Part shown: one piece after another, positions 2,230 to 26,752 of the stretch | How positions within the stretch are numbered: the first letter of the stretch is position 1 | Layout of the letters: the number at the start of each line of letters is the position of its first letter | Source: a virus | Direction: 5' to 3' (one strand) | UHGV virus genome: UHGV-0096747 | Length of the DNA: 32,457 nucleotides | Translations under genes and position numbers: made by a program | Notes under the pieces: model-generated | What the model was told of the DNA's origin: nothing | Seen by the model: only the letters and a program-made list of their open reading frames with translations | Databases searched by the model: none

Positions 2230-4677
2230 TTAACCGTCATGCATCATGCTGGCACGGGCGCGCACACGTTTATCCCGCTCGTATTTTTCGAGCGCATCCT
2301 GTAACTGGCGGTCAAGCTGTGTCCCCGGCGCAGTACCACCCGTCAGGCTGATGTGATATTCGTTTTTACTCTGGTCCACATAAGAGCGGCCAGCCGGTGC
2401 CGTGACCGGCTGATAAGCCTGATAGCCTGCATAAGAGCTGGTCGCCGGAATATAACCACCGGTGCCATACGTGGCGGCATGAGTTCTGGCGGCGGTCTGG
2501 TCAAGTGTGTCTGACTCTTTGTTGATAACACCGAGTTTTTCCAGTACCCAGTCAATACCGCTGCGCAGTTTGTTGAACGCATTAAGCGGCAGCATCAGCG
2601 CGTCAGCCAGTGCCTGCCCGAACATGACGCCCGTGTCACGGCAACGGTTCAGGGTGTCCTGTGTGGCTTTAACCGGAGCAATCAGGTTTGTAAACCACTG
2701 CCACGCGGCCTGTAACTTTTCGCCCAGCCAGTCAAACACCGGCTTAAGTGGCGTGAACAGCTCCCCCACCGGCGCAAATGCCGCTTTCAGCCCTTCAACC
2801 ACACCGCCAAAGAATGCGCTGACAGGCTCCCAGTATTTACGGATAAGCAACGCCCCGGCGACAATGGCAGCCACCACGGCCACAACCGGCCAGCTAATCG
2901 CACCGATGGCCGTCATAACGGCACTACCAACCGTCGTGAAGATTGCCCCCATTGCGCCTGCTGCCGCGATAATGGCATTGATGCCGGTGATAACCGGCCA
3001 GGCTACAAGGCCAATGGCACCGATGATGCCAGTCAGCGCCAGTGCACCGCCGGCAATGATGCCGATGGTTGACGCCAGTGATTTGTTTTTCTGTATCCAG
3101 CCGTCGAGTTTTAACACATACTTTGTGGCCGTCTGCGTGAGCTTACGCAGCGCGCCTTCCTGCTGGTCAAACAGGTCAGTCCCCACAGCCTCATAAGCGG
3201 ACTGAAACTCCTTAAAGTCACCGCCGAGGTTATCCTGCATGATTTTAACCAGCTCTTCCGTTTTACTGTCCGAGGCTTTCAGCGTGGCGGTCAGCGTATC
3301 CAGTTTTCCGCTTGCTGCCGCTGCCAGTAAAACGTTCGCTGATTTCAGGGCTTCCTCACCAAAAATGGTTTTAAGGTATTCCCCCTTCTGAGACGTTCCC
3401 AGCTTGTGTTTATCAAAGCTGGCCTGAATCTCTTTCAGAATGGTGAACAACGGACGCATATTTCCCTTTTTGTCCGAGGTTTTAACGCCAAGCTCTTTGA
3501 GTGCATCCCATGCTTTTCCAGTCGGAGCCTGTAATCGGGTGACAACGGCACTACTACCCGTACCCGCCATTGACCCCCTGATGTTATTGTCATGCAGCAC
3601 ACCGGTCATGGCTGCTGCCTGCTCAAGACTTACACCTGCCGTTCTTGCGACCGGACCGAGGTAAGTCAGTGCATCACTGAGTCCCTGAAAATCAGCCGCC
3701 GACTTATTCATCGTTGCCGACAACACGTCGCCCACATGGCTGACATCATCATTTGACAGTTGAAAGGATGCCTTAGTCCCCAGCAACAGTTGCGCGTTTT
3801 CTTCCATCGACCGCTGATTCGCCAGCGCCATATTCAGCGTGACCGGCGTTGCCGCCTGAATGGCATCAACATCCCCACCCGCTTTCGCGATGATTATCTG
3901 TGCACCGGCCGCATCATCCGCCGAGGCGGCGGTATTGTCGCCGAGCTGGCGCGCCTGTTTGCGTAGTGCGGTCATTTCGGCGGAGTCTTTTGCCACTCCG
4001 AGCACGGCCTGCAATTCTGAGTTTTTCTGCGCAAACTCATAACCGGGCATCAGCAACTTAACTCCGGCCATCGTTCCCGCCGCCGCAATCCCCACACCGG
4101 CAGCGCCCACTGAGGCCATATTTCCGGCCAGTTCCTTTCCGGCCTGATAACGCTGTTTTACTGCGTTAAGTTTTGCCTGTTGCGCACTGACACGCGCCAG
4201 CGCGTCACGCTGACGGTTAAGCTGTGCGGTGGTTTCACTGATACGATTTTTCAGTCCCTGCTCATCATGTGCAAGATTGCGGGTATTAATTCCCACAACG
4301 GCCAGTTCCCGCTGCTGGCGTTTAACGGAATCCGTCAGGCGGTTATATTTCGCCTGTAAGTCCTCCGCCGCACGCTTTGCGGATTCCAGCACTTTCGCCT
4401 GAGCACGGGTCGGACGTTCGGTGTTTTTAAACTGTGTGGCAAGGGCTTCGGCCTCCTGCCGTGCCTTTTCAAGTGCATGACCAGTTACGGCGAGCTGTGC
4501 ACTGGTCTTGCGAAATCCCTCAATACGGGATGCGTGACCGTTCAGCTCGCGCAGTGATTTTTGTGTTTCCCGGATATCCCCCGACAGCGACTTACTCGCT
4601 GTGCGGATGGATTTAAACGGGCGGGATGCCTGGTCAACAGCCCTGAGCAATACCTGTAATTTTACATTGTTACTCAT
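2230..4677 (-). CDS. T: Tail tape measure protein
   Basis: 815 aa as in P2 gpT; Ala/Gly-rich hydrophobic central region and coiled-coil N-terminus typical of tape measure proteins. Confidence 0.9.
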   Translation of the reverse strand: MSNNVKLQVLLRAVDQASRPFKSIRTASKSLSGDIRETQKSLRELNGHASRIEGFRKTSAQLAVTGHALEKARQEAEALATQFKNTERPTRAQAKVLESAKRAAEDLQAKYNRLTDSVKRQQRELAVVGINTRNLAHDEQGLKNRISETTAQLNRQRDALARVSAQQAKLNAVKQRYQAGKELAGNMASVGAAGVGIAAAGTMAGVKLLMPGYEFAQKNSELQAVLGVAKDSAEMTALRKQARQLGDNTAASADDAAGAQIIIAKAGGDVDAIQAATPVTLNMALANQRSMEENAQLLLGTKASFQLSNDDVSHVGDVLSATMNKSAADFQGLSDALTYLGPVARTAGVSLEQAAAMTGVLHDNNIRGSMAGTGSSAVVTRLQAPTGKAWDALKELGVKTSDKKGNMRPLFTILKEIQASFDKHKLGTSQKGEYLKTIFGEEALKSANVLLAAAASGKLDTLTATLKASDSKTEELVKIMQDNLGGDFKEFQSAYEAVGTDLFDQQEGALRKLTQTATKYVLKLDGWIQKNKSLASTIGIIAGGALALTGIIGAIGLVAWPVITGINAIIAAAGAMGAIFTTVGSAVMTAIGAISWPVVAVVAAIVAGALLIRKYWEPVSAFFGGVVEGLKAAFAPVGELFTPLKPVFDWLGEKLQAAWQWFTNLIAPVKATQDTLNRCRDTGVMFGQALADALMLPLNAFNKLRSGIDWVLEKLGVINKESDTLDQTAARTHAATYGTGGYIPATSSYAGYQAYQPVTAPAGRSYVDQSKNEYHISLTGGTAPGTQLDRQLQDALEKYERDKRVRARASMMHDG

Positions 4678-5684: not shown

Positions 5685-6875
5685 TTAATTGCTGTTAACC
5701 GAGGTGACCAGATTTGCCAGATATTTATCGGTGATACGCTGGCGCAGGGTCAGGTTTTCGAGAGGAGGCACCGGGGTATAGTCGTAGTCGATATACAGTT
5801 TTCCGGCCTTGAGGGTTTCCGCATCGTTGGATTCTTCGCTGAACCAGCAGGTCGCATCCACGATATAGCCGTTTGTTTTCAGCTCACGGAATTTGGCATT
5901 GATGCCGTCAACGATGTCGCGAATCAGCGTTGCAGTGATGGGCTTGTCCACCGCCCACATGTGCGCCTCAGCCATCGTGTCGGCCAGCACCTGCGCGGTG
6001 CGGGTGTAGTTTTCAAAGAGGAACAGCGGGTCATCAGAGCAGGTACGGTTACCCCAGAAGCGGAAACCGTCACGGCGAATCAGCGTTGTGACACCTGACT
6101 CGTTCAACAGGTCAGCATCGGTGCCGGACTCCTGCAAATCCCAGAATACAGAGGCACTGATGCCGGTAACGCCGTTTACCCCGACGTTGGACAGCGTTTT
6201 ATGCCAGCCCTGCTCCTGGTCGATTTTAGCGCGCAGACCCAGCGCACGGGCGGTGGCATACGCGGTGGCGGTGGTGCTGCTGACCGTATCCCATGCGAGG
6301 AAATCCGGCCAGATGACCATCAGCTCACGCTGGCTGAAATTCTGGCGGTAGGCTTTCACCTCGGAAATGGTTTTACAGCCCCATGCGCTGATATACCCGA
6401 AAGCGCGCAGCTTCTGACAGACGGATACCAGTGCAACAGCCACCTCTTTGGTGTCCAGTCCCGGCACACCGAGAATACGCGGTTTAACACCGGTTACCGA
6501 CTCCGCCGCCAGCAGGGCTTTCAGTCCGGTGTACTGACCGTTTTCGTCGGTGGTGCCGATGATATTGGAAACGGTCTGCGCGAGTTTCGTTTCTTCGTCT
6601 TCGCCGGTGCCGTCTTCCACACGCACGACAACGGTGACCGGTTTTGACTGGTCGGCGATGGCCTGCAACGATGCCGCCAGCGTGCCTTTTTTACCGGCCT
6701 TCGCAATTGCGCTCTGCACATTGGTAATCAGCACCGGTTTATTGAGGGGGAAGGTTTCCGCATCCGCATCGCTGGCCGTGCAGACCATGCCGACAATGGC
6801 CGTGGATACGGTGGAAATGACGCGGGTGCCGTCGTTAATCTCCAGCACCTGCACGCCATGATGATAGTCACTCAT
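5685..6875 (-). CDS. FI: Tail sheath protein FI
   Basis: 396 aa as in P2 gpFI; position. Confidence 0.9.
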   Translation of the reverse strand: MSDYHHGVQVLEINDGTRVISTVSTAIVGMVCTASDADAETFPLNKPVLITNVQSAIAKAGKKGTLAASLQAIADQSKPVTVVVRVEDGTGEDEETKLAQTVSNIIGTTDENGQYTGLKALLAAESVTGVKPRILGVPGLDTKEVAVALVSVCQKLRAFGYISAWGCKTISEVKAYRQNFSQRELMVIWPDFLAWDTVSSTTATAYATARALGLRAKIDQEQGWHKTLSNVGVNGVTGISASVFWDLQESGTDADLLNESGVTTLIRRDGFRFWGNRTCSDDPLFLFENYTRTAQVLADTMAEAHMWAVDKPITATLIRDIVDGINAKFRELKTNGYIVDATCWFSEESNDAETLKAGKLYIDYDYTPVPPLENLTLRQRITDKYLANLVTSVNSN

Positions 6876-7052
6876 CCGTTTAACTCCGTGGTTAATGGGT
6901 GCAACTATTTTCTGTTGGGCAGTGCATGAGACGCTATTTGACCTGGCTGGTCAGTGGATGAAACAACAGATAAAGAAAAGGCGGGCAATCAGCTTGCCTG
7001 CCTTGATTTGTACTCTCTCTGTTTCCAACTGACAAATTACGTAACCAAAATT

Positions 7053-7068
7053 CTGTCAAATCTGACAG
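7053..7068. terminator. Possible weak bidirectional terminator hairpin between the cargo gene and FI
   Basis: CTGTCA-AATC-TGACAG perfect 6-bp dyad flanked by 4-T runs on both strands, 68 nt downstream of the 7136..7828 ORF. Confidence 0.3.
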
Positions 7069-7135
7069 CCTGTTTTGAGCGAAGAGCGGACCTGAGATTG
7101 TGGTATGCTAATTTATGGGGAGCAGGTCAATTGTA

Positions 7136-7828
7136 TTAGTTATCTTTTTGCTTTTCTTTATCCCATTTCTTTGCAGTGGTCTGATACCACTCTTCACGTG
7201 CTCGTTGTTCCTCGGCTCTGTCACTTGAATTATAGTTGTCTGTTTTAATTTTTTTGCTTCCCTGGGAAATCGGCCTCCAGTCTTCTCTAATCTTTTTCAT
7301 CTGCTCAGCTATCTGTGTCATTGGACTCCTTGCACCTAAGTAGCTAACCCCCTCGAAAGAAGCCATATCATAAGAATACTCATTCCGCTCTCTTTCAGTT
7401 GAGCCCGGCTGTTTAGACCAGCTAATACTAACAGAATAAACTTGATCTTTAATCTGGTCATACTTACAAAGACTGCTGTTAAGGGAATGGCCGTTTTTCA
7501 ATACGCTAACCTTGCTAAATGGTATACCTTCATTTTTTCTATGTTCTGCATTAACCAGTGGGGGATTAAATCCGACTTCAATATCATAGGCTGGGGCATT
7601 TCCGGTATTAGCAATATTGATATCAAAATAAAAAGCAGCCCAAGAATTTGGTTCAAGAGTCACAACGACATGAGGTTGAACTGATGCGTCAACCATCCTT
7701 TTTGTCTCGTCTGCTAATAGCCTTGTTACTCTCCACAAGAAAAATGTAGCAACTGCTGTTAGCAATGCTGCCAAAGCGGAGATAAGTGTACTTACTGTGT
7801 TTATATGCTCTGCGATAAATTCGATCAT
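7136..7828 (-). CDS. Hypothetical single-pass membrane protein, AT-rich cargo at the Z/fun position
   Basis: 230-aa ORF with ATG start and AAGGA Shine-Dalgarno 7 nt upstream; N-terminal hydrophobic helix (VSTLISALAALLTAVATFFLW) then a charged soluble domain; AT-rich unlike the flanking tail genes. Confidence 0.6.
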   Translation of the reverse strand: MIEFIAEHINTVSTLISALAALLTAVATFFLWRVTRLLADETKRMVDASVQPHVVVTLEPNSWAAFYFDINIANTGNAPAYDIEVGFNPPLVNAEHRKNEGIPFSKVSVLKNGHSLNSSLCKYDQIKDQVYSVSISWSKQPGSTERERNEYSYDMASFEGVSYLGARSPMTQIAEQMKKIREDWRPISQGSKKIKTDNYNSSDRAEEQRAREEWYQTTAKKWDKEKQKDN

Positions 7829-8319
7829 GAGTTGTCCTTGGGGGCGTACTAATTGTTTTCAATACTAAAATAGCGCCGGGCTTGAAAAATTGCACACTTA
7901 TGGTTCGATTTACCTCAACAGTTAAGGCTTCAACTTCCCCCATGCACCTCACCCAGCCCAAGACTGTATGAGGTCTGACAAAGAACTTCCTGACACTTGA
8001 AAACGAGGCAACGGCTAGGGTTTCTCGTAGGGCAAGGATTGAATACGAAGCCTGTATATTGCTCCGCGAACGCTGCTGAGGGCAGTTTAAATGTTGGGCG
8101 TTTATGTAGCCTTTCACTCACCAGCATGAGTTCAATGTCTGTGAGTTACCGACAACAATATAAAGGGGGTGGCATCATCATATATCCAAGCTAGAGTCAA
8201 ATCCTATAACTGGTTTTATGATCAGTGTCAATTGTTTGATTATTGAACGTTTACGAAGCAGCACGGGAGCCATATAACTAATGGGCAGGTATAAGCCTGT
8301 ATCACGAGGAATCAGTAAA

Positions 8320-8499
8320 ATGGCTGATGATAAGACCAAAATCGGTACCCCTGACAATGATTTAATAAGTATCAAACAGGATTACGAGAGACGTGATTGG
8401 GCTGAAAAGTTTGGAGTTAGCGAGGCCAAACTTGTTCAAGCCGTACAGGCTGTAGGTCATTCGGCTAAGAAAGTACAGGCATGGCTTAAAGACCATTAA
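8320..8499 (+). CDS. Small hypothetical protein (59 aa), resembles the DUF3606 family
   Basis: Internal ATG at 8320 with GAGGAA Shine-Dalgarno 8 nt upstream (the track ORF starts earlier at 8281); WAEKFGVSEAKLVQAVQAVGHSAKKV matches my memory of the DUF3606 pattern; followed by a terminator. Confidence 0.5.
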   Translation: MADDKTKIGTPDNDLISIKQDYERRDWAEKFGVSEAKLVQAVQAVGHSAKKVQAWLKDH

Positions 8500-8505
8500 T
8501 ATATG

Positions 8506-8528
8506 AGCGCCTTTCTAGGCGCTTTTTT
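8506..8528 (+). terminator. Rho-independent terminator between the two small cargo ORFs
   Basis: AGCGCC-TTTCTA-GGCGCT hairpin followed by TTTTTT. Confidence 0.5.
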
Positions 8529-8551
8529 CTTTGTCCTTTGGGAGATGATTT

Positions 8552-8830
8552 ATGGCTAATAATTTATTTATTACTTACGACCTCATTAAAACGAAAGATT
8601 ATGCGGCTGTGTATGATGCAATTAAATCTTTAGGAAATTGGGCTTTAACAACTGAATCGAACTGGTATGTTAACTGTAGTTACTCTGCCGAGGATGCAGC
8701 CAAAATTGTGAGGGCGGTCATGGATAGTGATGATAAGCTTATTGTTGTAGACGCAACCAATAACTCAGCTTATTGGTACAATCTCTCAGATGAAGTTAGT
8801 AACCAAATTCTGACTGAGTGGAACAAGTAA
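8552..8830 (+). CDS. Small hypothetical protein (92 aa)
   Basis: ATG with GGGAG Shine-Dalgarno upstream; AT-rich; alternating hydrophobic strand-like and helix-like segments (LFITYDL, KLIVVDA, AYWYNL); no family assigned. Confidence 0.5.
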   Translation: MANNLFITYDLIKTKDYAAVYDAIKSLGNWALTTESNWYVNCSYSAEDAAKIVRAVMDSDDKLIVVDATNNSAYWYNLSDEVSNQILTEWNK

Positions 8831-8856
8831 TTAAAGGGGGTGGGTACCCCCTTTAA
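8831..8856. terminator. Perfect 10-bp inverted repeat (TTAAAGGGGG / CCCCCTTTAA), likely bidirectional terminator closing the cargo island
   Basis: Palindrome with 6-nt loop immediately after the stop of the 92-aa ORF. Confidence 0.4.
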
Positions 8857-9049
8857 TTCAGAAACTATCATGATTGAAACATTAAATATACTGGGTTAAT
8901 TCTTTCATCCTTGCTCCCTTGCTATATGTCCTGAAAGCGTCCTTTTTAGCCTTCTGCTCAGTATGTCCGGTAATGGCACAGAGCGGACTGTCAGATTAGG
9001 CTTTACTCTGTGCCATAGATATGTAATCTCACACCAGAGCTTATACAAC

Positions 9050-9577
9050 TTATTGCGGCATTTCCGGCCATTCAGGATTTGCAGGATCCACACGACTGAC
9101 CAGAACGCTGTAGCGTTCCCAGATCTCCAGCCGTGTGCGCTCCTCATCTGTTGCCATGTTCAGTCTGACCGCGCGCTCCAGCGGCAAAATCACGGATTCA
9201 GCATCTGCTAGAAGTCTGGCTTTCCGATTTTCTGCCTGCTGCTGCAATTCCTCCGCCGTATAAATTCGTTTAATCACTGTGCCGTCCTTAAACATCCAGT
9301 TCCCTGAAATGTCCGCCCGTCGGTTAGCGGTAATATCCGGCACTTCAACAACACTTAATCCATCTGGTCTGATAGCTGTCACATCCTTTTCCACATAGCG
9401 GATAATATTATCTTTGTCGTACGCTATTTTTATCGTGTCATCAGCAAAATACTTTTGTTCTTCGTACCAGTTCTTACCATCTTCTGAAAAAAACCAGACA
9501 ACATCAAAACCCTTTGTCAATTGATATTGTTCAACCGTTTTTGGATTACCCGCCGTAATATTTTTTAAATGCTGCAT
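9050..9577 (-). CDS. G: Tail fibre assembly protein
   Basis: 175 aa as in P2 gpG; immediately downstream of the tail fibre gene. Confidence 0.88.
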
Positions 9578-9580
9578 AAA

Positions 9581-11578
9581 TTATACCTGTGCCACGTTAT
9601 ACCATGTCCCGTTAATGTATTTCTGAACCGGTCTGTAATATACGCCACCAATGTTATCGGCAGAGTTTGAGCCGGTATCCTGAACAATAATGCCGGAATA
9701 TATACACCCGGACGGTGCCTGATGTGTCCATGTCATGCCATTGTTCGCAGGTTTGTATGTGGCAGCACCACCAAGCCGGATATCCCGGACATAGCGGGAA
9801 TCAAAGTTACCGTAATCTGTGGGATTAACACGCCCCGTAATATTTATGGTTTTATTACTTTGAATGCTACCGGAGACAAAGCGCATAACATGGACGTTAT
9901 TAGCATAAACATCCAGATTACCGTCGCCATTTTGTTTAAAGCCCGTGTCATTATCACCCAAAACAATCGAGTTACCGCCAAGAGCACTGGATGTACCGAT
10001 GCCCAGTGCACCATTCAATTGACCTCCAGATAATGATAACGCCCCAACATCAGCAGCAGTCGGTTTAATGTGCGAACTGTAAATTACATATACAGTTCCA
10101 TCTGTCAGGCCTGTTGGTTTATTCGCTGTATAAGTTGGTGATGTATGAATCGTTACGCTGGCGTTACTGGTATAATCCCACTGAATATTAACACCTGTGG
10201 CGTAATTACCTATTTCAACATAAACATCATAGGTATCACCGGATGTATTCACCCATGCAAAATTAGTAAATCCAACCGATGTCCGTCGCCATAACGCACC
10301 AGTAAGACCTTTTGGATTTCCATTCCCCGCACGAAGAACAAGTTCAGATATACCAGCCTGCATAGGGGAGTTAACATTATATCCGGCACCACCAATCAGA
10401 CTTATGTAAACCACGGAACTGGCCTGTGGCATGGTTACAGTTGCCAGCCTGAACCATCCTGTACCACCACTAAAAGACATGGTTGTTGAATTTGTTGCTC
10501 CAATATTGCGCAGGAATAATCTTTTATCAGGAATATCCGCGCCATTTTGATCTTTCTGAAGACGTTTTTCAGCATTGTCATAGGCAGACTTCACCGCTTT
10601 TGGTGTTGCGGCCAGCGTTTCCGAATCACTGTTGGTGGCGCTACTGAGCTGAACAAGCCCTTTTCGCGCTGTGGTGGCATCCTGTGCAGTGTATTTCCCG
10701 TTAGCAAGGTCATACGCGACCTTTACCGCCTTTGGCGTTGCGGCCAGCGTTTCAGAATCGCTGTTGGTGGCGCTACTGAGCTGAACAAGGCCTTTTCGCG
10801 CTGTGGTGGCGTCCTGTGCGGTATATTTCCCGTTAGCAAGGTCATATGCTGCTTTTACCGCTTTTGGTGTTGCAGCGAGCGTTTCAGACGTGCTGTTGGT
10901 GGCACTACTGAGCTGGACAAGGCCTTTTCGTGCTGTGGTGGCGTCCTGTGCGGTATATTTCCCGTTAGCAAGGTCATATGCGGCCTTTACCGCCTTTGGC
11001 GTTGCAGCCAGTGTTTCAGACGTGCTGTTGGTCGCACTGCTTAACTGAGTAAAACCTTTTGCGGTCAGCGAGGCGTCCGGGTGACGTCGTGACTGTTCAT
11101 GTTCTGCAATTTTGTCATCAACGTAATCCTGCGTCGCCATCACCGTTGTGGTGTCAATGGTCAGCGCCACTGAGGTCACACTGCTGACGATGATGACCAT
11201 ACGGCAGGTCTGCGAACGCCCTGAGCCTTCGGCAAGAGCTGGCTTATAACTTTCGGCCATGTTCGCCACAGCAATTAACGTTCCCGCATCATCGTACAGG
11301 CCAAGCTCACGCATCCAGAAACCGCCCACCTCCGGCGGAATAACCAGCTCTGCGATAATATAATTACTGTTTCGTTTGTCCTGGCTGATTTTGTTCAGCG
11401 CATGTCGCCAGACTTCGTGGATAAGCCCGGTCTGTCCGGCATCCGGGACAGGCAATTTACCACCGCCATCCCCGACGGCCATCGTGGTAATGTTGACCTT
11501 CCGCCCTCCCGGTGCGGTTGCCGCTGCCAGCTTTGCTGCACCGGCAGTGGTGATAACGGTTCTGAATTTTGTGCTCAT
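9581..11578 (-). CDS. H: Tail fibre protein
   Basis: 665 aa (P2 gpH is about 669); position between I and G; contains internal tandem repeats. Confidence 0.88.
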   Translation of the reverse strand: MSTKFRTVITTAGAAKLAAATAPGGRKVNITTMAVGDGGGKLPVPDAGQTGLIHEVWRHALNKISQDKRNSNYIIAELVIPPEVGGFWMRELGLYDDAGTLIAVANMAESYKPALAEGSGRSQTCRMVIIVSSVTSVALTIDTTTVMATQDYVDDKIAEHEQSRRHPDASLTAKGFTQLSSATNSTSETLAATPKAVKAAYDLANGKYTAQDATTARKGLVQLSSATNSTSETLAATPKAVKAAYDLANGKYTAQDATTARKGLVQLSSATNSDSETLAATPKAVKVAYDLANGKYTAQDATTARKGLVQLSSATNSDSETLAATPKAVKSAYDNAEKRLQKDQNGADIPDKRLFLRNIGATNSTTMSFSGGTGWFRLATVTMPQASSVVYISLIGGAGYNVNSPMQAGISELVLRAGNGNPKGLTGALWRRTSVGFTNFAWVNTSGDTYDVYVEIGNYATGVNIQWDYTSNASVTIHTSPTYTANKPTGLTDGTVYVIYSSHIKPTAADVGALSLSGGQLNGALGIGTSSALGGNSIVLGDNDTGFKQNGDGNLDVYANNVHVMRFVSGSIQSNKTINITGRVNPTDYGNFDSRYVRDIRLGGAATYKPANNGMTWTHQAPSGCIYSGIIVQDTGSNSADNIGGVYYRPVQKYINGTWYNVAQV
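10565..11059 (-). repeat. About 3.7 tandem copies of a 132-bp (44-aa) unit inside the tail fibre gene
   Basis: Peptide unit KG(F/L)(T/V)QLSSATNS(T/D)SETLAATPKAVK(A/V/S)AYDLANGKYTAQDATTAR repeated; DNA period of 132 bp confirmed by identical strings at 10640 and 10772; boundaries derived from protein positions. Confidence 0.8.
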
Positions 11579-14087: not shown

Positions 14088-14873
14088 ATGGTCAGCTATA
14101 ATGTGACTAATGTGTGGGGGCTAATCGTTTTTTTCCTTTGTAGCTTTGCAGTATTAGCATTTTTTAGCTTTGGTAAAAGTAACCTTATGAGGCTTATTGC
14201 ACATTATTTCAATTTTGGATATTCAGACAAAAAATTAAAAAGACTTGACCGCGAGTGGCGCGACATTCAACTATTTAAAATAATTAACGGAATCAATGTA
14301 TCAGGCATTGAAAATGTGAGAATGATACAGCAGGGACTGATTGATGGAAAACTAAAAACATCGTATTTTTTCCTTACTCGCATCTGGGGTGACATAACAA
14401 AAACACCACACATAATTAAAACAATAATTGTAATTCTGTCCAGTATTTTTTACATTCTCCTCGCATGTTACATACACAACGAACAATCCGTTATAGTAAG
14501 GGATGCCATAGGCATACCATATAAAAACATGATGTACTATGTTTATAGTGACAAAGTTCTTTTATCCTTCAAAAATAAAGCAGTTGAATTTAATAAAACT
14601 TATAGCCTTGCCGATTGCAAGAGACTGCAAAACGTATTTATAAAAGACACACTTCCTGAAATCGCCTGCAATAAGCTCTTACAGCTAAACGAGGAGGACT
14701 CCGAATGGTTAAGCCAGGAGATTAAAGATAATAACAGTCACAAAAAAGCATTATCAATACTATCCCTCGTCTATTTCACTTCAGGTCTGGTTATATTCCT
14801 GTCATATACAAAATTCTTTTACGCCAATAAGAAGGTTTTAGAATACAAAGCATCAAATAAAAATCACTCATAA
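14088..14873 (+). CDS. orf30-like AT-rich membrane protein, antisense to the late operon
   Basis: 261 aa (786 bp, the size I recall for P2 orf30); ATG with AGGAG Shine-Dalgarno; three hydrophobic helix-like segments; very AT-rich; opposite strand to flanking V and S. Confidence 0.7.
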   Translation: MVSYNVTNVWGLIVFFLCSFAVLAFFSFGKSNLMRLIAHYFNFGYSDKKLKRLDREWRDIQLFKIINGINVSGIENVRMIQQGLIDGKLKTSYFFLTRIWGDITKTPHIIKTIIVILSSIFYILLACYIHNEQSVIVRDAIGIPYKNMMYYVYSDKVLLSFKNKAVEFNKTYSLADCKRLQNVFIKDTLPEIACNKLLQLNEEDSEWLSQEIKDNNSHKKALSILSLVYFTSGLVIFLSYTKFFYANKKVLEYKASNKNHS

Positions 14874-24125: not shown

Positions 24126-24130
24126 ACATC

Positions 24131-24152
24131 GCCGCCTGCGGGCGGCTTTTTT
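24131..24152 (+). terminator. Rho-independent terminator after Q
   Basis: GCCGCC-TGCG-GGCGGC hairpin followed by TTTTTT, 6 nt after the Q stop. Confidence 0.6.
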
Positions 24153-24217
24153 ACACCCCGCCATCACGACGCGCTCAGACGCTGAAAAAATAAAATCAGC
24201 ACCACCGCCAGCGCGCA

Positions 24218-24236
24218 GTGCTTTCCCCGCCTCGCC
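24218..24236. other. cos: cos site (19-nt cohesive-end sequence)
   Basis: Reverse complement GGCGAGGCGGGGAAAGCAC matches my recollection of the P2 cohesive end; it sits just beyond Q as in P2. Confidence 0.6.
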
Positions 24237-24368
24237 CGCCCGCTTCATGGGGCGGTTTTAATGCAGGTGCATGATATCTGCCGTAGCCAGTCAGGGCAGG
24301 CTGATTTTAGCCAAAATAATTCGTAAAACCTCATGCATTTTCATGCACCAAACTCATGCATGGCTATC

Positions 24369-24698
24369 TTAAAACTTGATGGTATTTAATAAAACGCGAA
24401 AAGCCACACACTTTGTAGAAATAGCAGAAACCTTTGCCTTATCCTGCTTCCTTGCCTGAGACTCAAAATCATCACCTGTTATAATATCAAAAAGTTCGTC
24501 ATGAAAAACCCTTAACTGAGCTTCAATATCCTTTCTTTTCCATCGCGACTCTTGCTGAACATATATTGTTATAGTCGAATTTATTATATTTAAACTCGCC
24601 TTAATTCTCATTTCCTCTTCTAAGAGAGACTTCGCCGACTTTTTTGAATACCCCTTCAACCAATAACTAATAGCATCAGAACGCAACTCATTAACCAC
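24369..24698 (-). CDS. Hypothetical protein, fourth ORF of the old/tin-position cargo operon
   Basis: 109-aa ORF with GTG start and GGAGAG Shine-Dalgarno 10-11 nt upstream; AT-rich; overlaps the preceding ORF by 43 nt in another frame. Confidence 0.4.
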   Translation of the reverse strand: MVNELRSDAISYWLKGYSKKSAKSLLEEEMRIKASLNIINSTITIYVQQESRWKRKDIEAQLRVFHDELFDIITGDDFESQARKQDKAKVSAISTKCVAFRVLLNTIKF

Positions 24699-25030
24699 AT
24701 CTGAAATACTCTCCAGGAGTTTGGTTTTAGTCTCCCGTTTAACAACAGAACGCCAATGGACTTTATTATATGCAAATGCGGCAGTGGCCGCAAAATAGTA
24801 CTAATAAGAGCCGTAATAAGTGATGACGATAAAATAGGCGTTTCAGGTGGATGCCGTATTGCATCAACAATATTAGAACTAGCTACTTCAATTATCGTAT
24901 TAATATCCTTAACTGCATGAGTAGCACTCAGGCCTTCTTCATTATCCTTCTTGATAAAAAGCAAACTAGGTGAGAACTCACCAGAACCCTCACCTAAAAT
25001 AAACATCGGATTATTCGACTGTTGGCTCAT
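24656..25030 (-). CDS. Hypothetical protein, third ORF of the cargo operon (C-terminal half may be out of frame)
   Basis: 124-aa ORF with ATG start overlapping the end of the upstream ORF by 20 nt; AT-rich. Confidence 0.4.
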   Translation of the reverse strand: MSQQSNNPMFILGEGSGEFSPSLLFIKKDNEEGLSATHAVKDINTIIEVASSNIVDAIRHPPETPILSSSLITALISTILRPLPHLHIIKSIGVLLLNGRLKPNSWRVFQMWLMSCVLMLLVIG

Positions 25031-25400
25031 ATCGTTTCGAATTAAACTGCGCCTCGTTGATATATTGTTCTATTTTCTTTTTATAGAAATCAAAATCAGG
25101 ATTAGTATATTTAATTTCAATTTTAGACAATAACTCATTGGCATGCATATATCCATATTTTACCATGCCCGCAAAGCCCTCCACCAAAAAAGACGAACCA
25201 TATCCTTCGACATCATCATCGATGACTATCTGCAATTTTTCCCCAGCAGAAAGCAAGCTTAGACGCTTTCTTAAGAAATCTTCTCTAAACCGTTCACCAC
25301 TTGCTGTCCCGTCAGTACGATAGCGGCCTCTGGGAACTTTCGAGAACTCTGAACCAATCTTCAATGTTTTCATGAGGCTAGCAACCAATCTAGTAATCAT
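25011..25400 (-). CDS. Small protein (129 aa), possible STAS-like fold, translationally coupled to the upstream ATPase gene
   Basis: The ATG at 25398..25400 overlaps the upstream TGA (ATGA coupling) and has a GGAG Shine-Dalgarno; the track ORF starts earlier at a TTG. Segment IVIDDDVEGYGSSFLVEGF loosely resembles the STAS core. Confidence 0.5.
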   Translation of the reverse strand: MITRLVASLMKTLKIGSEFSKVPRGRYRTDGTASGERFREDFLRKRLSLLSAGEKLQIVIDDDVEGYGSSFLVEGFAGMVKYGYMHANELLSKIEIKYTNPDFDFYKKKIEQYINEAQFNSKRYEPTVE

Positions 25401-26527
25401 AGCTTTGTACTCCATACTATAAGTGTACCACAAACAGGCAGAGCGAAGCTTACTGATTTTACCTCAGATTTTTTATCATGTTGTGAGTATTTGTAAAGGC
25501 CTTTACCACTCATAATTGAAAGATAACCTTCACCACGTTGCTTTATGAACTCCAACAAGTCCTGCAAGCCTTTACCCCGATCCTCTTCCCCCGTACTAGA
25601 ACGTTTGATTTCAACTGCAGCCTTTAACAATTGTTCATCTCTTTTTCGTTCTGCAAGCGGTAACTTCGAAAGGTAATTTAAAACCTTTTCATGGAGTTTA
25701 GATTCCGGCAAAGACCCAGGAATTGTAATACCTTGATCATAAAACACTACTTTTATTATTCTACTTGAACTATCATATGAAGCAGTTAAATACCATTTTT
25801 TATCATGCTCATGATAACCTTTATTATCTGGATAAGCATGATGAACAACATTTGTAATAGCTTCGGACAAACCACTATATAGGAAAGTCCATTTACCAAG
25901 GTCTTCTCCCACAATACGCTTTATTTCTTTTTTTAAATGCTGAGTTTTTTCATCATCATGTAAATGTCCTTTCATATACTTAACAAAACGGATATTACTT
26001 GGTTCCTTTTCTTTTTCAAGCTCAAAACTATCTTTATTTCTAAATAAGTCAAAAAAACCCAACTCATCAAATTGAGAGAGTATGTTTTTATTCCACGTTT
26101 TCACTTTTGGGCGAATGCGTTGCCTTACCGAATCATCCCATTTTGATAATTCCGCGGTCAATACCAATGCGGCAGATGCAGAAATATATTCAATCTTCGA
26201 AAAGTCAACAAAACAAAGACGGTAACATTGGTTATTAAATATCTTCCGCCCCGTAAGATGCCTAATCGTTTGTATGGCTTGCATTGTACGATGGTAATTA
26301 CTTGAAAAGTTCATCTTTTTAGGTAAAGTAAGGAAAAGGTCTCTATTTTTCCTTATTTCGCAATTTAATCCATCTTTAATTTGCGCATTTATCCAACGAT
26401 TTATTTTTGATGCTTTTGAAATAGGATTAATCTTAGAGCGCCCTGCAGATACAACATCTCTTCCTGTACGATGTAAATAGGATCGTAAAATATCTCTCTC
26501 TCTTTCTCTCTTGGTTATTTTTTTCAT
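25397..26527 (-). CDS. GHKL-family ATPase or kinase-like protein with N-terminal STAS-like segment, first gene of the cargo operon
   Basis: 376 aa; ATG with strong AAGGGGGG Shine-Dalgarno; C-terminal motifs EAITNVVHHA (N-box-like), FYDQGITIPG (G1-like) and DRGKGLQDL (G2-like); N-terminal VDFSKIEYISASAALVL resembles the STAS phospho-site region; AT-rich. Confidence 0.55.
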   Translation of the reverse strand: MKKITKRERERDILRSYLHRTGRDVVSAGRSKINPISKASKINRWINAQIKDGLNCEIRKNRDLFLTLPKKMNFSSNYHRTMQAIQTIRHLTGRKIFNNQCYRLCFVDFSKIEYISASAALVLTAELSKWDDSVRQRIRPKVKTWNKNILSQFDELGFFDLFRNKDSFELEKEKEPSNIRFVKYMKGHLHDDEKTQHLKKEIKRIVGEDLGKWTFLYSGLSEAITNVVHHAYPDNKGYHEHDKKWYLTASYDSSSRIIKVVFYDQGITIPGSLPESKLHEKVLNYLSKLPLAERKRDEQLLKAAVEIKRSSTGEEDRGKGLQDLLEFIKQRGEGYLSIMSGKGLYKYSQHDKKSEVKSVSFALPVCGTLIVWSTKL

Positions 26528-26752
26528 CTTCCCCCCTTAGAAAACTGACGCATTTAACAGCTTTTTTATCATTTTTTCAATCAGTTGTATCAATTTTTGA
26601 TGTGCGCATCAAACTTCTCAAACCCACACAAACACAAACTATCTCGCCCATCCCCTCTAGCCAACCTCAAAACTGTACATAATATGCTCTTTTTCCCGCA
26701 AGGTTATGCGCGAGCCACTCATTCAGCATTAACTTATCATTACAAAACATAA

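Follow-up and report, generated by a model that had tools for sequence, protein, structure and literature searches.

Accessory cargo in the Z/fun slot of a P2-like prophage: a mosaic of two separately mobile cassettes

The virus genome UHGV-0096747, a P2-like prophage, has 32,457 nucleotides (nt); this whole stretch is called the window here, and all coordinates refer to it. The subject of this report is the island of accessory genes between the genes of the tail sheath protein FI and the tail fibre assembly protein G (interval 6876-9049), which encodes a membrane protein of 230 amino acids (aa), a DUF3606 protein of 59 aa, and a protein of 92 aa. The island is non-essential accessory ("moron") cargo in the Z/fun variability slot of the prophage. 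Sequence comparisons show that it is not one unit but a mosaic of two separately mobile cassettes, cassette A with the gene of the 230-aa protein and cassette B with the two small genes.

The locus and the extent of the cargo

All three open reading frames (ORFs) that the initial annotation had reported between FI and G are present, intact, and in place in the ORF listing, and Pfam matches support the tail sheath and the tail fibre assembly protein on either side. The features of the locus are as follows:

5685-6875, minus strand: tail sheath FI (Phage_sheath_1, E 7e-34)
6876-7091, minus strand: P2 backbone on the left, with the P_F late promoter region upstream of FI, a terminator hairpin, and the left inverted repeat
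6978-7004, minus strand: late-strand terminator hairpin, P2 backbone
7059-7091: left inverted repeat, 33 nt, annotated in AJ512682
7136-7828, minus strand: gene of the 230-aa bitopic inner-membrane protein (ORF1 of P2-EC53; DUF8453 in one RefSeq label)
7829-8062, minus strand: non-coding DNA upstream of the 230-aa gene; a ribosome-binding site (AAGGA) precedes the ATG by 6 nt
8063-8200, plus strand: endonuclease VII-like remnant, last ~45 codons
8250-8278, plus strand: promoter-like site for the DUF3606 gene, TTTACG-17-TATAAC, conserved in donor-type elements
8320-8499, plus strand: DUF3606 protein gene, 59 aa, small and hydrophilic (Pfam PF12244; 72 aa if the start is at 8281)
8505-8524, plus strand: intrinsic terminator, GC-rich hairpin and T-run, between the DUF3606 and 92-aa genes
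8552-8830, plus strand: gene of the 92-aa protein, putatively a stand-alone Cas2/VapD-like protein with a ferredoxin fold
8829-8858, no strand assigned: perfect 13-bp inverted repeat, in the donor a terminator that works in both directions, between the 92-aa gene and the integrase gene facing it
~8879-8983, minus strand: tyrosine integrase remnant, last 33 codons
8965-8997: right inverted repeat, an imperfect inverted copy of the left one, annotated in AJ512682
8965-9049, minus strand: P2 backbone that follows G and contains the right inverted repeat
9050-9577, minus strand: tail fibre assembly protein G (Caudo_TAP, E 1e-33)

In phage P2 (NC_001895), this slot between G and FI is occupied by fun(Z). 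The slot had been taken for the second known defence hotspot of P2-like phages, which is backed by the literature, where it is treated as the second P2 defence/variability hotspot (Vassallo 2022, PMC9519451; also the Egorov 2024 preprint). The DNA is AT-rich as described, with a GC content of 0.409 in 7092-8964 against 0.516 in the remaining window, and values that drop to 0.38-0.45 along the region. The extent of the island had to be revised. There is cargo between FI and G, but the two ends of the interval, 6876-7091 and about 8965-9049, are conserved P2 backbone; they are the only parts of the interval that 70 phage records match, and the left end aligns with P2 and Wphi. According to the annotation of P2, the activator site and the transcription start of the F operon fall in this left flank. 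Because both ends match P2-type phages, the real cargo comprises only about 7092-8964 (~1.9 kb) and not ~2.2 kb. The hairpins that had been described as bracketing terminators do exist. However, the left one belongs to the P2 backbone and the right one (8829-8858) arrived with the 92-aa gene, and a third, conserved terminator at 8505-8524 separates the two small genes. An Rfam scan of 6700-9300 gave nothing approaching any gathering score, and a sigma-70 consensus scan yielded 0 sites at the threshold, which is below shuffled sequences.

Cassette B is a slice of an integrative element

Over 915 nt, the DNA at 8063-8974 shares 87% identity with an element in strain NCTC11023 (locus L086), which encodes, in this order, a capsid protein, an HNH endonuclease, two small proteins, Endonuclease_7, the DUF3606 protein, and the 92-aa protein, followed by an integrase on the opposite strand. 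The endonuclease of NCTC11023 matches Pfam Endonuclease_7, and a tblastn search with this protein recovers its C-terminal end to the left of the DUF3606 gene (E 1.6e-9). On the other side, the end of the tyrosine integrase (AITGHTEQKAKKDAFRTYSKGARMKELTQYI*) is found by tblastn with an E of 8e-14, and the DNA homology to integrase-adjacent loci extends to 8977. Another set of relatives are E. coli islands that are ~79% identical to 8209-8977, and in which the DUF3606 and 92-aa genes are convergent to a DUF6538-type tyrosine integrase. Both borders of cassette B fall inside a gene of the donor, and the cassette is therefore an uninterrupted piece of an integrative element that encodes a capsid protein. 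The island was assembled by illegitimate recombination from two unrelated mobile cassettes.

The 230-aa protein of cassette A

The initial annotation left open whether the 230-aa protein is a homologue of Z/fun. In a BLASTP comparison with P2 Fun(Z) (NP_046777) the best match has an E of 1.7 over 25 residues, and homology can therefore be dismissed. Like the island, Fun(Z) lies between G and FI and is non-essential cargo of the lysogenic-conversion type, but it has 528 aa, its gene runs opposite to the late genes, and it has no sequence similarity to any of the three island proteins. Nor is the 230-aa protein related to gp44 of Wphi, which several other P2-like phages carry as their cargo, and it has no match in Pfam, NCBIfam, or PADLOC. 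An identical copy is named "DUF8453" in one RefSeq record.

The description as a single-pass membrane protein encoded on the late-gene strand agrees with one hydrophobic segment (residues ~12-32; Kyte-Doolittle 19-residue maximum of 2.05 at residues 12-30) and with the asymmetry of the charges. Across 56 homologues, Lys+Arg number 0.07 in the 15 residues that precede the helix and 3.7 in the 15 that follow it. By the positive-inside rule, most of the protein should therefore lie in the cytoplasm, and the predicted topology is N-out/C-in with a short periplasmic N-terminus. The AlphaFold2 model, with a predicted local distance difference test (pLDDT) score of 86.7, has a long helix (residues 2-49), a seven-strand immunoglobulin (Ig)-like β-sandwich (54-154), and two basic C-terminal helices. 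In the alignment of the family the transmembrane (TM) helix and the juxtamembrane stretch are unusually conserved (TAvATffLWRVT..LA.ETKRM), and the following domain contains the conserved motifs EPN.W, NTGNA.AYDI, and F.PPL.N.

The family comprises 234 clusters at E up to 1e-3 and ranges from the Enterobacterales to Xanthomonas, Erythrobacter, and the sphingomonads, at 45-50% identity. In Xanthomonas the homologue adjoins an integrase, and in Erythrobacter it is part of a Mob_Pre/Prim-Pol element and lies beside a SIR2-like gene. Further homologues are found in a Klebsiella island, as cargo of a Pectobacterium conjugative element, at the edge of an island in Yokenella, and in a tRNA-Leu-adjacent genomic island of E2348/69, 2.3 kb from a DpdF helicase. 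In a sphingomonad the homologue is an orphan between ribBA and rodA. No conserved neighbour of the 230-aa gene was found across these contexts. Cassette A is a self-contained single gene that travels alone in conjugative elements, genomic islands, and prophages. The homology with the E2348/69 copy extends to 7966, into the upstream region. The 327-nt region upstream of the gene, when folded, gave a z of -0.9 and thus no sign of a structured leader, and this region contains no Rfam match and no sigma-70 consensus at the scan threshold.

The position of the gene could also be read in another way. It is located on the late strand directly downstream of the V-W-J-I-H-G operon, and a single-pass membrane protein with a conserved TM helix could be a membrane factor in the cycle of the phage itself, for instance in lysis timing or in tail or fibre assembly. 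We regard this as highly improbable: the gene is missing from most P2-like phages, it has an early-region position in lambdoid prophages (see below), and its homologues occur in conjugative elements, in non-phage islands, and as an orphan chromosomal gene.

The two small genes do not form an obligate pair

The similarity of the 59-aa protein to DUF3606 was confirmed by a match to PF12244 with an E of 4e-18 and 65.3 bits against a cut-off of 24.3, covering profile positions 1-54 of 54. Of the two possible starts, that at 8320 is better supported, by an AGGA ribosome-binding site, the RefSeq start, and the upstream promoter-like site. This site (8250-8278) scores below the threshold of the scanner and its role as a promoter is accordingly an inference. 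The DUF3606 protein has no relative in the PDB.

The DUF3606 and 92-aa genes had been described as a two-gene module. If so, they might work in the manner of VapXD, as a type II toxin-antitoxin pair or in abortive infection, with the 92-aa protein as toxin and the DUF3606 protein as antitoxin, which would stabilise the element or kill infected cells. The arrangement has the expected look, as the small gene comes first, the 92-aa gene follows on the same strand 52 nt downstream, and the pair stays together in several enterobacterial elements. The Cas2/VapD-like fold proposed for the 92-aa protein, its invariant Asp at the end of β1, and the nuclease activity of BPSL1038 and VapD (PMC10491678) would also fit a toxin. 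However, the neighbourhoods speak against such a pair. Among the 48 species-level genome loci encoding a homologue of the 92-aa protein that were surveyed, only one has a DUF3606 gene directly upstream, and this is a 97%-identical Pantoea copy. In the other loci the upstream gene encodes a DUF2188-like protein, a different 42-54-aa basic protein, or something unrelated, or there is nothing, and many homologues lack a small upstream gene. Conversely, there are DUF3606 genes with no 92-aa gene, in a Yersinia ruckeri island and beside Ku/LigD in Pseudorhodoferax. The two genes are also split by the terminator at 8505-8524, whose stem is maintained through compensatory changes in the donor elements, unlike in overlapping toxin-antitoxin operons. 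The homology with elements that do not contain DUF3606 starts just past this hairpin, at 8518-8530. Compared with locus L014, the nonsynonymous divergence (dN) is 0.014 for the DUF3606 gene versus 0.16 for the 92-aa gene, for which synonymous sites are saturated. DUF3606 is far less diverged and the two genes have therefore had different histories. A toxin-antitoxin pair is thus quite unlikely, and the two-gene module has to be abandoned: DUF3606 and the 92-aa protein are no obligate pair, and the three genes of the island are independent units.

A separate observation is that several unrelated genes of tiny, basic, hydrophilic proteins are often found directly upstream of homologues of the 92-aa gene (loci L031, L034, L035, L047, L049, L054, L056, and L061). 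They encode DUF2188-like proteins, a 42-54-aa family with the pattern "KTGQFV…rhP.TTv.Et", and Lys/Ser-rich repeat proteins.

The 92-aa protein and its relation to Cas2

The AlphaFold2 model of the 92-aa protein (pLDDT 95.9) has the order β1-α1-β2-β3-α2-β4-β5-α3, and according to this model the protein has a Cas2/VapD-like ferredoxin fold with a β-α-β-β-α-β core. The closest folds are those of Cas2 proteins including E. coli Cas2, at 8-13% identity to the Cas2 chains. Y9, D10, S36, Y39, D61, and W90 are invariant in the family (Y9-D10 in 50 homologues). Y9-D10 are located at the end of β1 (strand 3-10) and S36 in the β2-β3 turn. BPSL1038 is a Cas2/VapD-like DNase whose site consists of an Asp plus a Ser/Thr turn (PMC10491678). 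The 92-aa protein resembles BPSL1038, Cas2, and VapD in the Asp at the end of β1 and the Ser in the β2-β3 turn, and shares an extra C-terminal helix with BPSL1038, but its spacing is D(x25)S compared to the D11(x20)SST motif of BPSL1038. At the level of profiles, the protein of the window reaches only an E of 0.019 with the Cas2 models, which are PF09827 (CRISPR_Cas2; CRISPR, clustered regularly interspaced short palindromic repeats) and those of PADLOC. PF09827 matches 16 of the 50 homologues, the best with an E of 2e-3. DUF3884 is matched by 26 of the 50, and several Cas2 models of PADLOC match homologues as well (best E 2.6e-5). All scores of the protein and its homologues with Cas2 hidden Markov models (HMMs) are under the curated cut-offs.

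The family is large, with 2365 representatives at 50% clustering across many phyla, and is carried by phages and satellites. Defence-type neighbours were found in several loci (type III restriction Res subunit, ThsB-TIR, DUF3800, Schlafen/AlbA2), and an ImmA/IrrE-like peptidase is encoded within 3 kb of the homologue in seven of the 48 loci. A general adjacency to integrases was considered and rejected, because it is restricted to the Enterobacterales (two of the 48 loci). A Pfam scan of longer proteins with the 92-aa domain, in which fusions were sought, gave nothing useful, and one protein seemingly fused to baseplate J probably reflects an error in gene calling.

In the type I-E operons of two related assemblies a homologue with 53-58% identity is encoded between cas3 (cas3e) and cas8e. 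The two homologues are found at 6001-6279 of L075, a Bacterioplanoides metagenome-assembled genome, and at 6001-6273 of L038, an assembly labelled Flavobacterium sp. Both operons have a WYL regulator upstream, and the gene after cas6e matches not cas1 but the PADLOC candidate PDC-S22. L075 and L038 are closely related and may represent a single lineage.

These operons, together with the fold, for which E. coli Cas2 is among the closest, and with the phages and satellites that bear the family, would be consistent with a Cas2 look-alike that acts on CRISPR-Cas, disturbing or replacing Cas2 in spacer acquisition, for example in the type I-E system of E. coli. The cargo would then be counter-defence. 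We consider this very unlikely. The similarity to Cas2 is at the level of the fold only, with every HMM match under its gathering score, and the CRISPR-linked loci are just two of 48 and closely related to one another. In addition, neither cas1 nor a CRISPR array was found beside the 92-aa gene, be it in the island, its flanks, or the rest of the window.

Occurrence, earlier records, and selection

In a search of 5426 complete E. coli genomes, 1029 matched the flanks, of which 99 carry the island. The two halves of the island co-occur in essentially the same ~100 genomes. The small ORFs are thus no P2 backbone genes, in line with the initial annotation, and since the 230-aa protein is no Z/fun homologue either, the designation as cargo stands. 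It is, however, not cargo that had never been seen, because it was deposited as the Z-region of P2-EC53 and published as morons of phage R18C. Over all 2174 nt the interval is 98.2% identical to R18C (MN016939) and 97.8% identical to P2-EC53 (AJ512682). The latter record is entitled "Bacteriophage P2-EC53 proviral Z-region, ORF1" and annotates the 230-aa ORF as "putative lysogenic conversion protein". Both sequences contain the three ORFs and the flanking repeats as in the window, but in the P2-EC53 record only ORF1 is annotated, and neither record offers a function or an origin. In the R18C record an antisense 44-aa ORF was called at 4486-4620, where the DUF3606 gene lies, and DUF3606 is therefore missing from the protein set of this record. 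The R18C paper describes two short ORFs of unknown function (morons) at the fun(Z) position, one of them DUF3606 (PMC6823313). A literature search for the accessions, "P2-EC53", and "DUF8453" returned no papers. Thus, the sequence of the island and its status as an unknown moron are already published. New are the split into independent cassettes, the donor remnants, the structural assignments, the transfer from P2-like to lambdoid phages, and the two cas-embedded homologues.

Each of the three ORFs matches a PHROG family (E of 1e-146, 8e-39, and 1e-24) and has numerous homologues. The pairwise ratios of nonsynonymous to synonymous substitutions (dN/dS) are 0.12 for the 230-aa gene, 0.035 for DUF3606, and 0.063 for the 92-aa gene, which indicates that all three are maintained under purifying selection. 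This bears on the possibility that the island is selectively neutral baggage, which a recombination-prone Z/fun slot has collected as fragments and which has no role in the prophage. The truncated gene remnants could be read as sloppy capture, one copy (E. coli E6474, NZ_CP116981) is interrupted by an IS4-like ISVsa5 transposase insertion, and none of the published mentions gives a function. But neutral baggage is unlikely given the low dN/dS values, the three intact ORFs in ~100 genomes and in a viable phage, the retained regulatory signals, and the size of the families and their conservation across phyla.

Transfer into lambdoid prophages

The three-gene arrangement was found in 20 copies in IMG/VR, five of which have no FI or G detected within the locus. 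These five (L102, L103, L105, L107, and L109) and a copy in E. coli D217-5 (L117, 4499-6190) are lambdoid prophages. In the lambdoid copies the segment corresponding to 7076-9033 of the window (1959 nt, 95.8% identical) is inserted between the replication genes and hokD/rusA/Q. The shared block includes ~60 nt of P2-type flank, which makes a P2-like phage the most likely source and a lambdoid phage the recipient. Hotspot cargo of one phage family has moved as a unit into the moron region of another.

What the island may do for the lysogen

As a tentative reading, which we hold to be close to but not quite probable, the island would be a mosaic moron island that is expressed in the lysogen and benefits the host against other phages or mobile elements. 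Its genes would be expressed from the prophage, and the benefit would come from interference with the competing elements. At the inner membrane, on its cytoplasmic side, the 230-aa protein would bring about superinfection exclusion or abortive infection, with the β-sandwich binding a phage or host component and the conserved TM helix mediating oligomerisation or perturbation of the membrane. The 92-aa protein might, as a small dimer of the BPSL1038/Cas2 type, bind or cleave nucleic acids, and DUF3606 might be an independent small protein that merely co-travels. The DUF3606 gene would have its own promoter and terminator, and the 92-aa gene would be readable only by read-through of this terminator.

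A benefit to the lysogen is suggested because of the record of the hotspot, namely fun(Z) and three PD systems, and because of the mobile-element and defence-type neighbourhoods of the homologues. The three PD systems were found in the Z/fun hotspot of P2 by Vassallo et al. 2022 (PMC9519451). They share with the island the hotspot itself and the kind of evidence, which is the position in a variable slot, but differ in that the three island proteins have no match in PADLOC v2. This version presumably includes models for PD-T4, PD-T7, and PD-Lambda. HK97 gp15, P22 SieA, and lambda RexB are small inner-membrane proteins of exclusion or abortive infection that are likewise single-gene prophage cargo in variable slots. 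The 230-aa protein differs from these by its one TM helix and large cytoplasmic Ig-like domain, and is not known to be related to them in sequence or fold. An identity of the island with the system of "three hypothetical genes" of Rousset 2022 was rejected, because that system comes from the gpA-Q hotspot.

Several points weigh against the role in protecting the lysogen. None of the three proteins fits a defence model of PADLOC-DB v2.0.0 (5027 models): the 230-aa protein has no match at E up to 1, and the DUF3606 and 92-aa proteins of the window give chance-level matches only. Searches of PDB sequences with the single proteins and with the profiles A2 and A5 also returned only chance matches. 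The defence association of the neighbours of the 92-aa family is anecdotal, without statistical enrichment. ACT and MTH1187 domains score nearly as well as Cas2 in the fold comparison, and Cas2-like is here a generic ferredoxin-like assignment. The 230-aa gene is encoded on the late strand and a promoter was not found, and expression in the lysogen is therefore assumed. Finally, phage R18C grows lytically with the island, which would also fit a role in the phage's own cycle. At a minimum, this lytic growth means that carrying the island does the phage no harm, which fits cargo as well. A role as anti-phage cargo is plausible but unproven, and cargo that protects the lysogen is our best guess.

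A far-reaching reading that joins several of these observations would have the 92-aa proteins as a very large, cross-phylum family of solo Cas2-like proteins, borne by phages, satellites, and defence islands, that engage CRISPR adaptation, in mobile elements as mimics that sabotage or redirect acquisition, and in some type I-E operons as an accessory subunit whose gene was recruited to a place between cas3 and cas8e. Independently of this, the 230-aa protein, with its TM helix and cytoplasmic Ig-like domain, might represent a novel membrane defence that consists of one gene and is present from E. coli to the sphingomonads. We consider this a long shot.

Other variable regions of the window

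The main P2 defence hotspot, between the portal gene Q and the replication gene A, is located at 24126-26752. It contains a gene for a 376-aa protein with no Pfam or PADLOC match (25397-26527, minus strand), which is overlapped by the gene of a 140-aa DUF4325 (STAS-like) protein (25011-25433, minus strand), and two more small ORFs. None of the proteins of this hotspot is a known defence system. At the third moron slot of P2 (orf30 position), a 261-aa ORF (14088-14873, plus strand) is encoded opposite to the surrounding late genes and has no Pfam or PADLOC match. The R18C paper describes a 741-bp unknown ORF at the orf30 position (PMC6823313). The tail fibre protein H (9581-11578, minus strand) contains four tandem units of ~40 residues (…KGLVQLSSATNS[TD]SETLAATPKAVK.AYDLANGKYTAQDATTAR…), encoded at ~10550-11050, and this repeat is mirrored by long spurious ORFs on the opposite strand.

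Implications

The island is present in roughly a tenth of the P2-like prophages of E. coli, in a slot that has already yielded validated defence genes, and its three proteins are still catalogued as hypothetical. The dissection of the island yields separately clonable units (230-aa, DUF3606, and 92-aa) and removes the misleading assumption of a two-gene system. The membrane-anchored Ig-like family and the solo Cas2-like family are thereby flagged for a phenotype screen; if neither shows a phenotype, the island is one more uncharacterised set of morons. For the biology of the P2-like phages, the island shows base by base how a hotspot gains its cargo, with a fragment of a satellite-like element, its outer genes truncated, first captured and the whole block then moved onward into lambdoid prophages.

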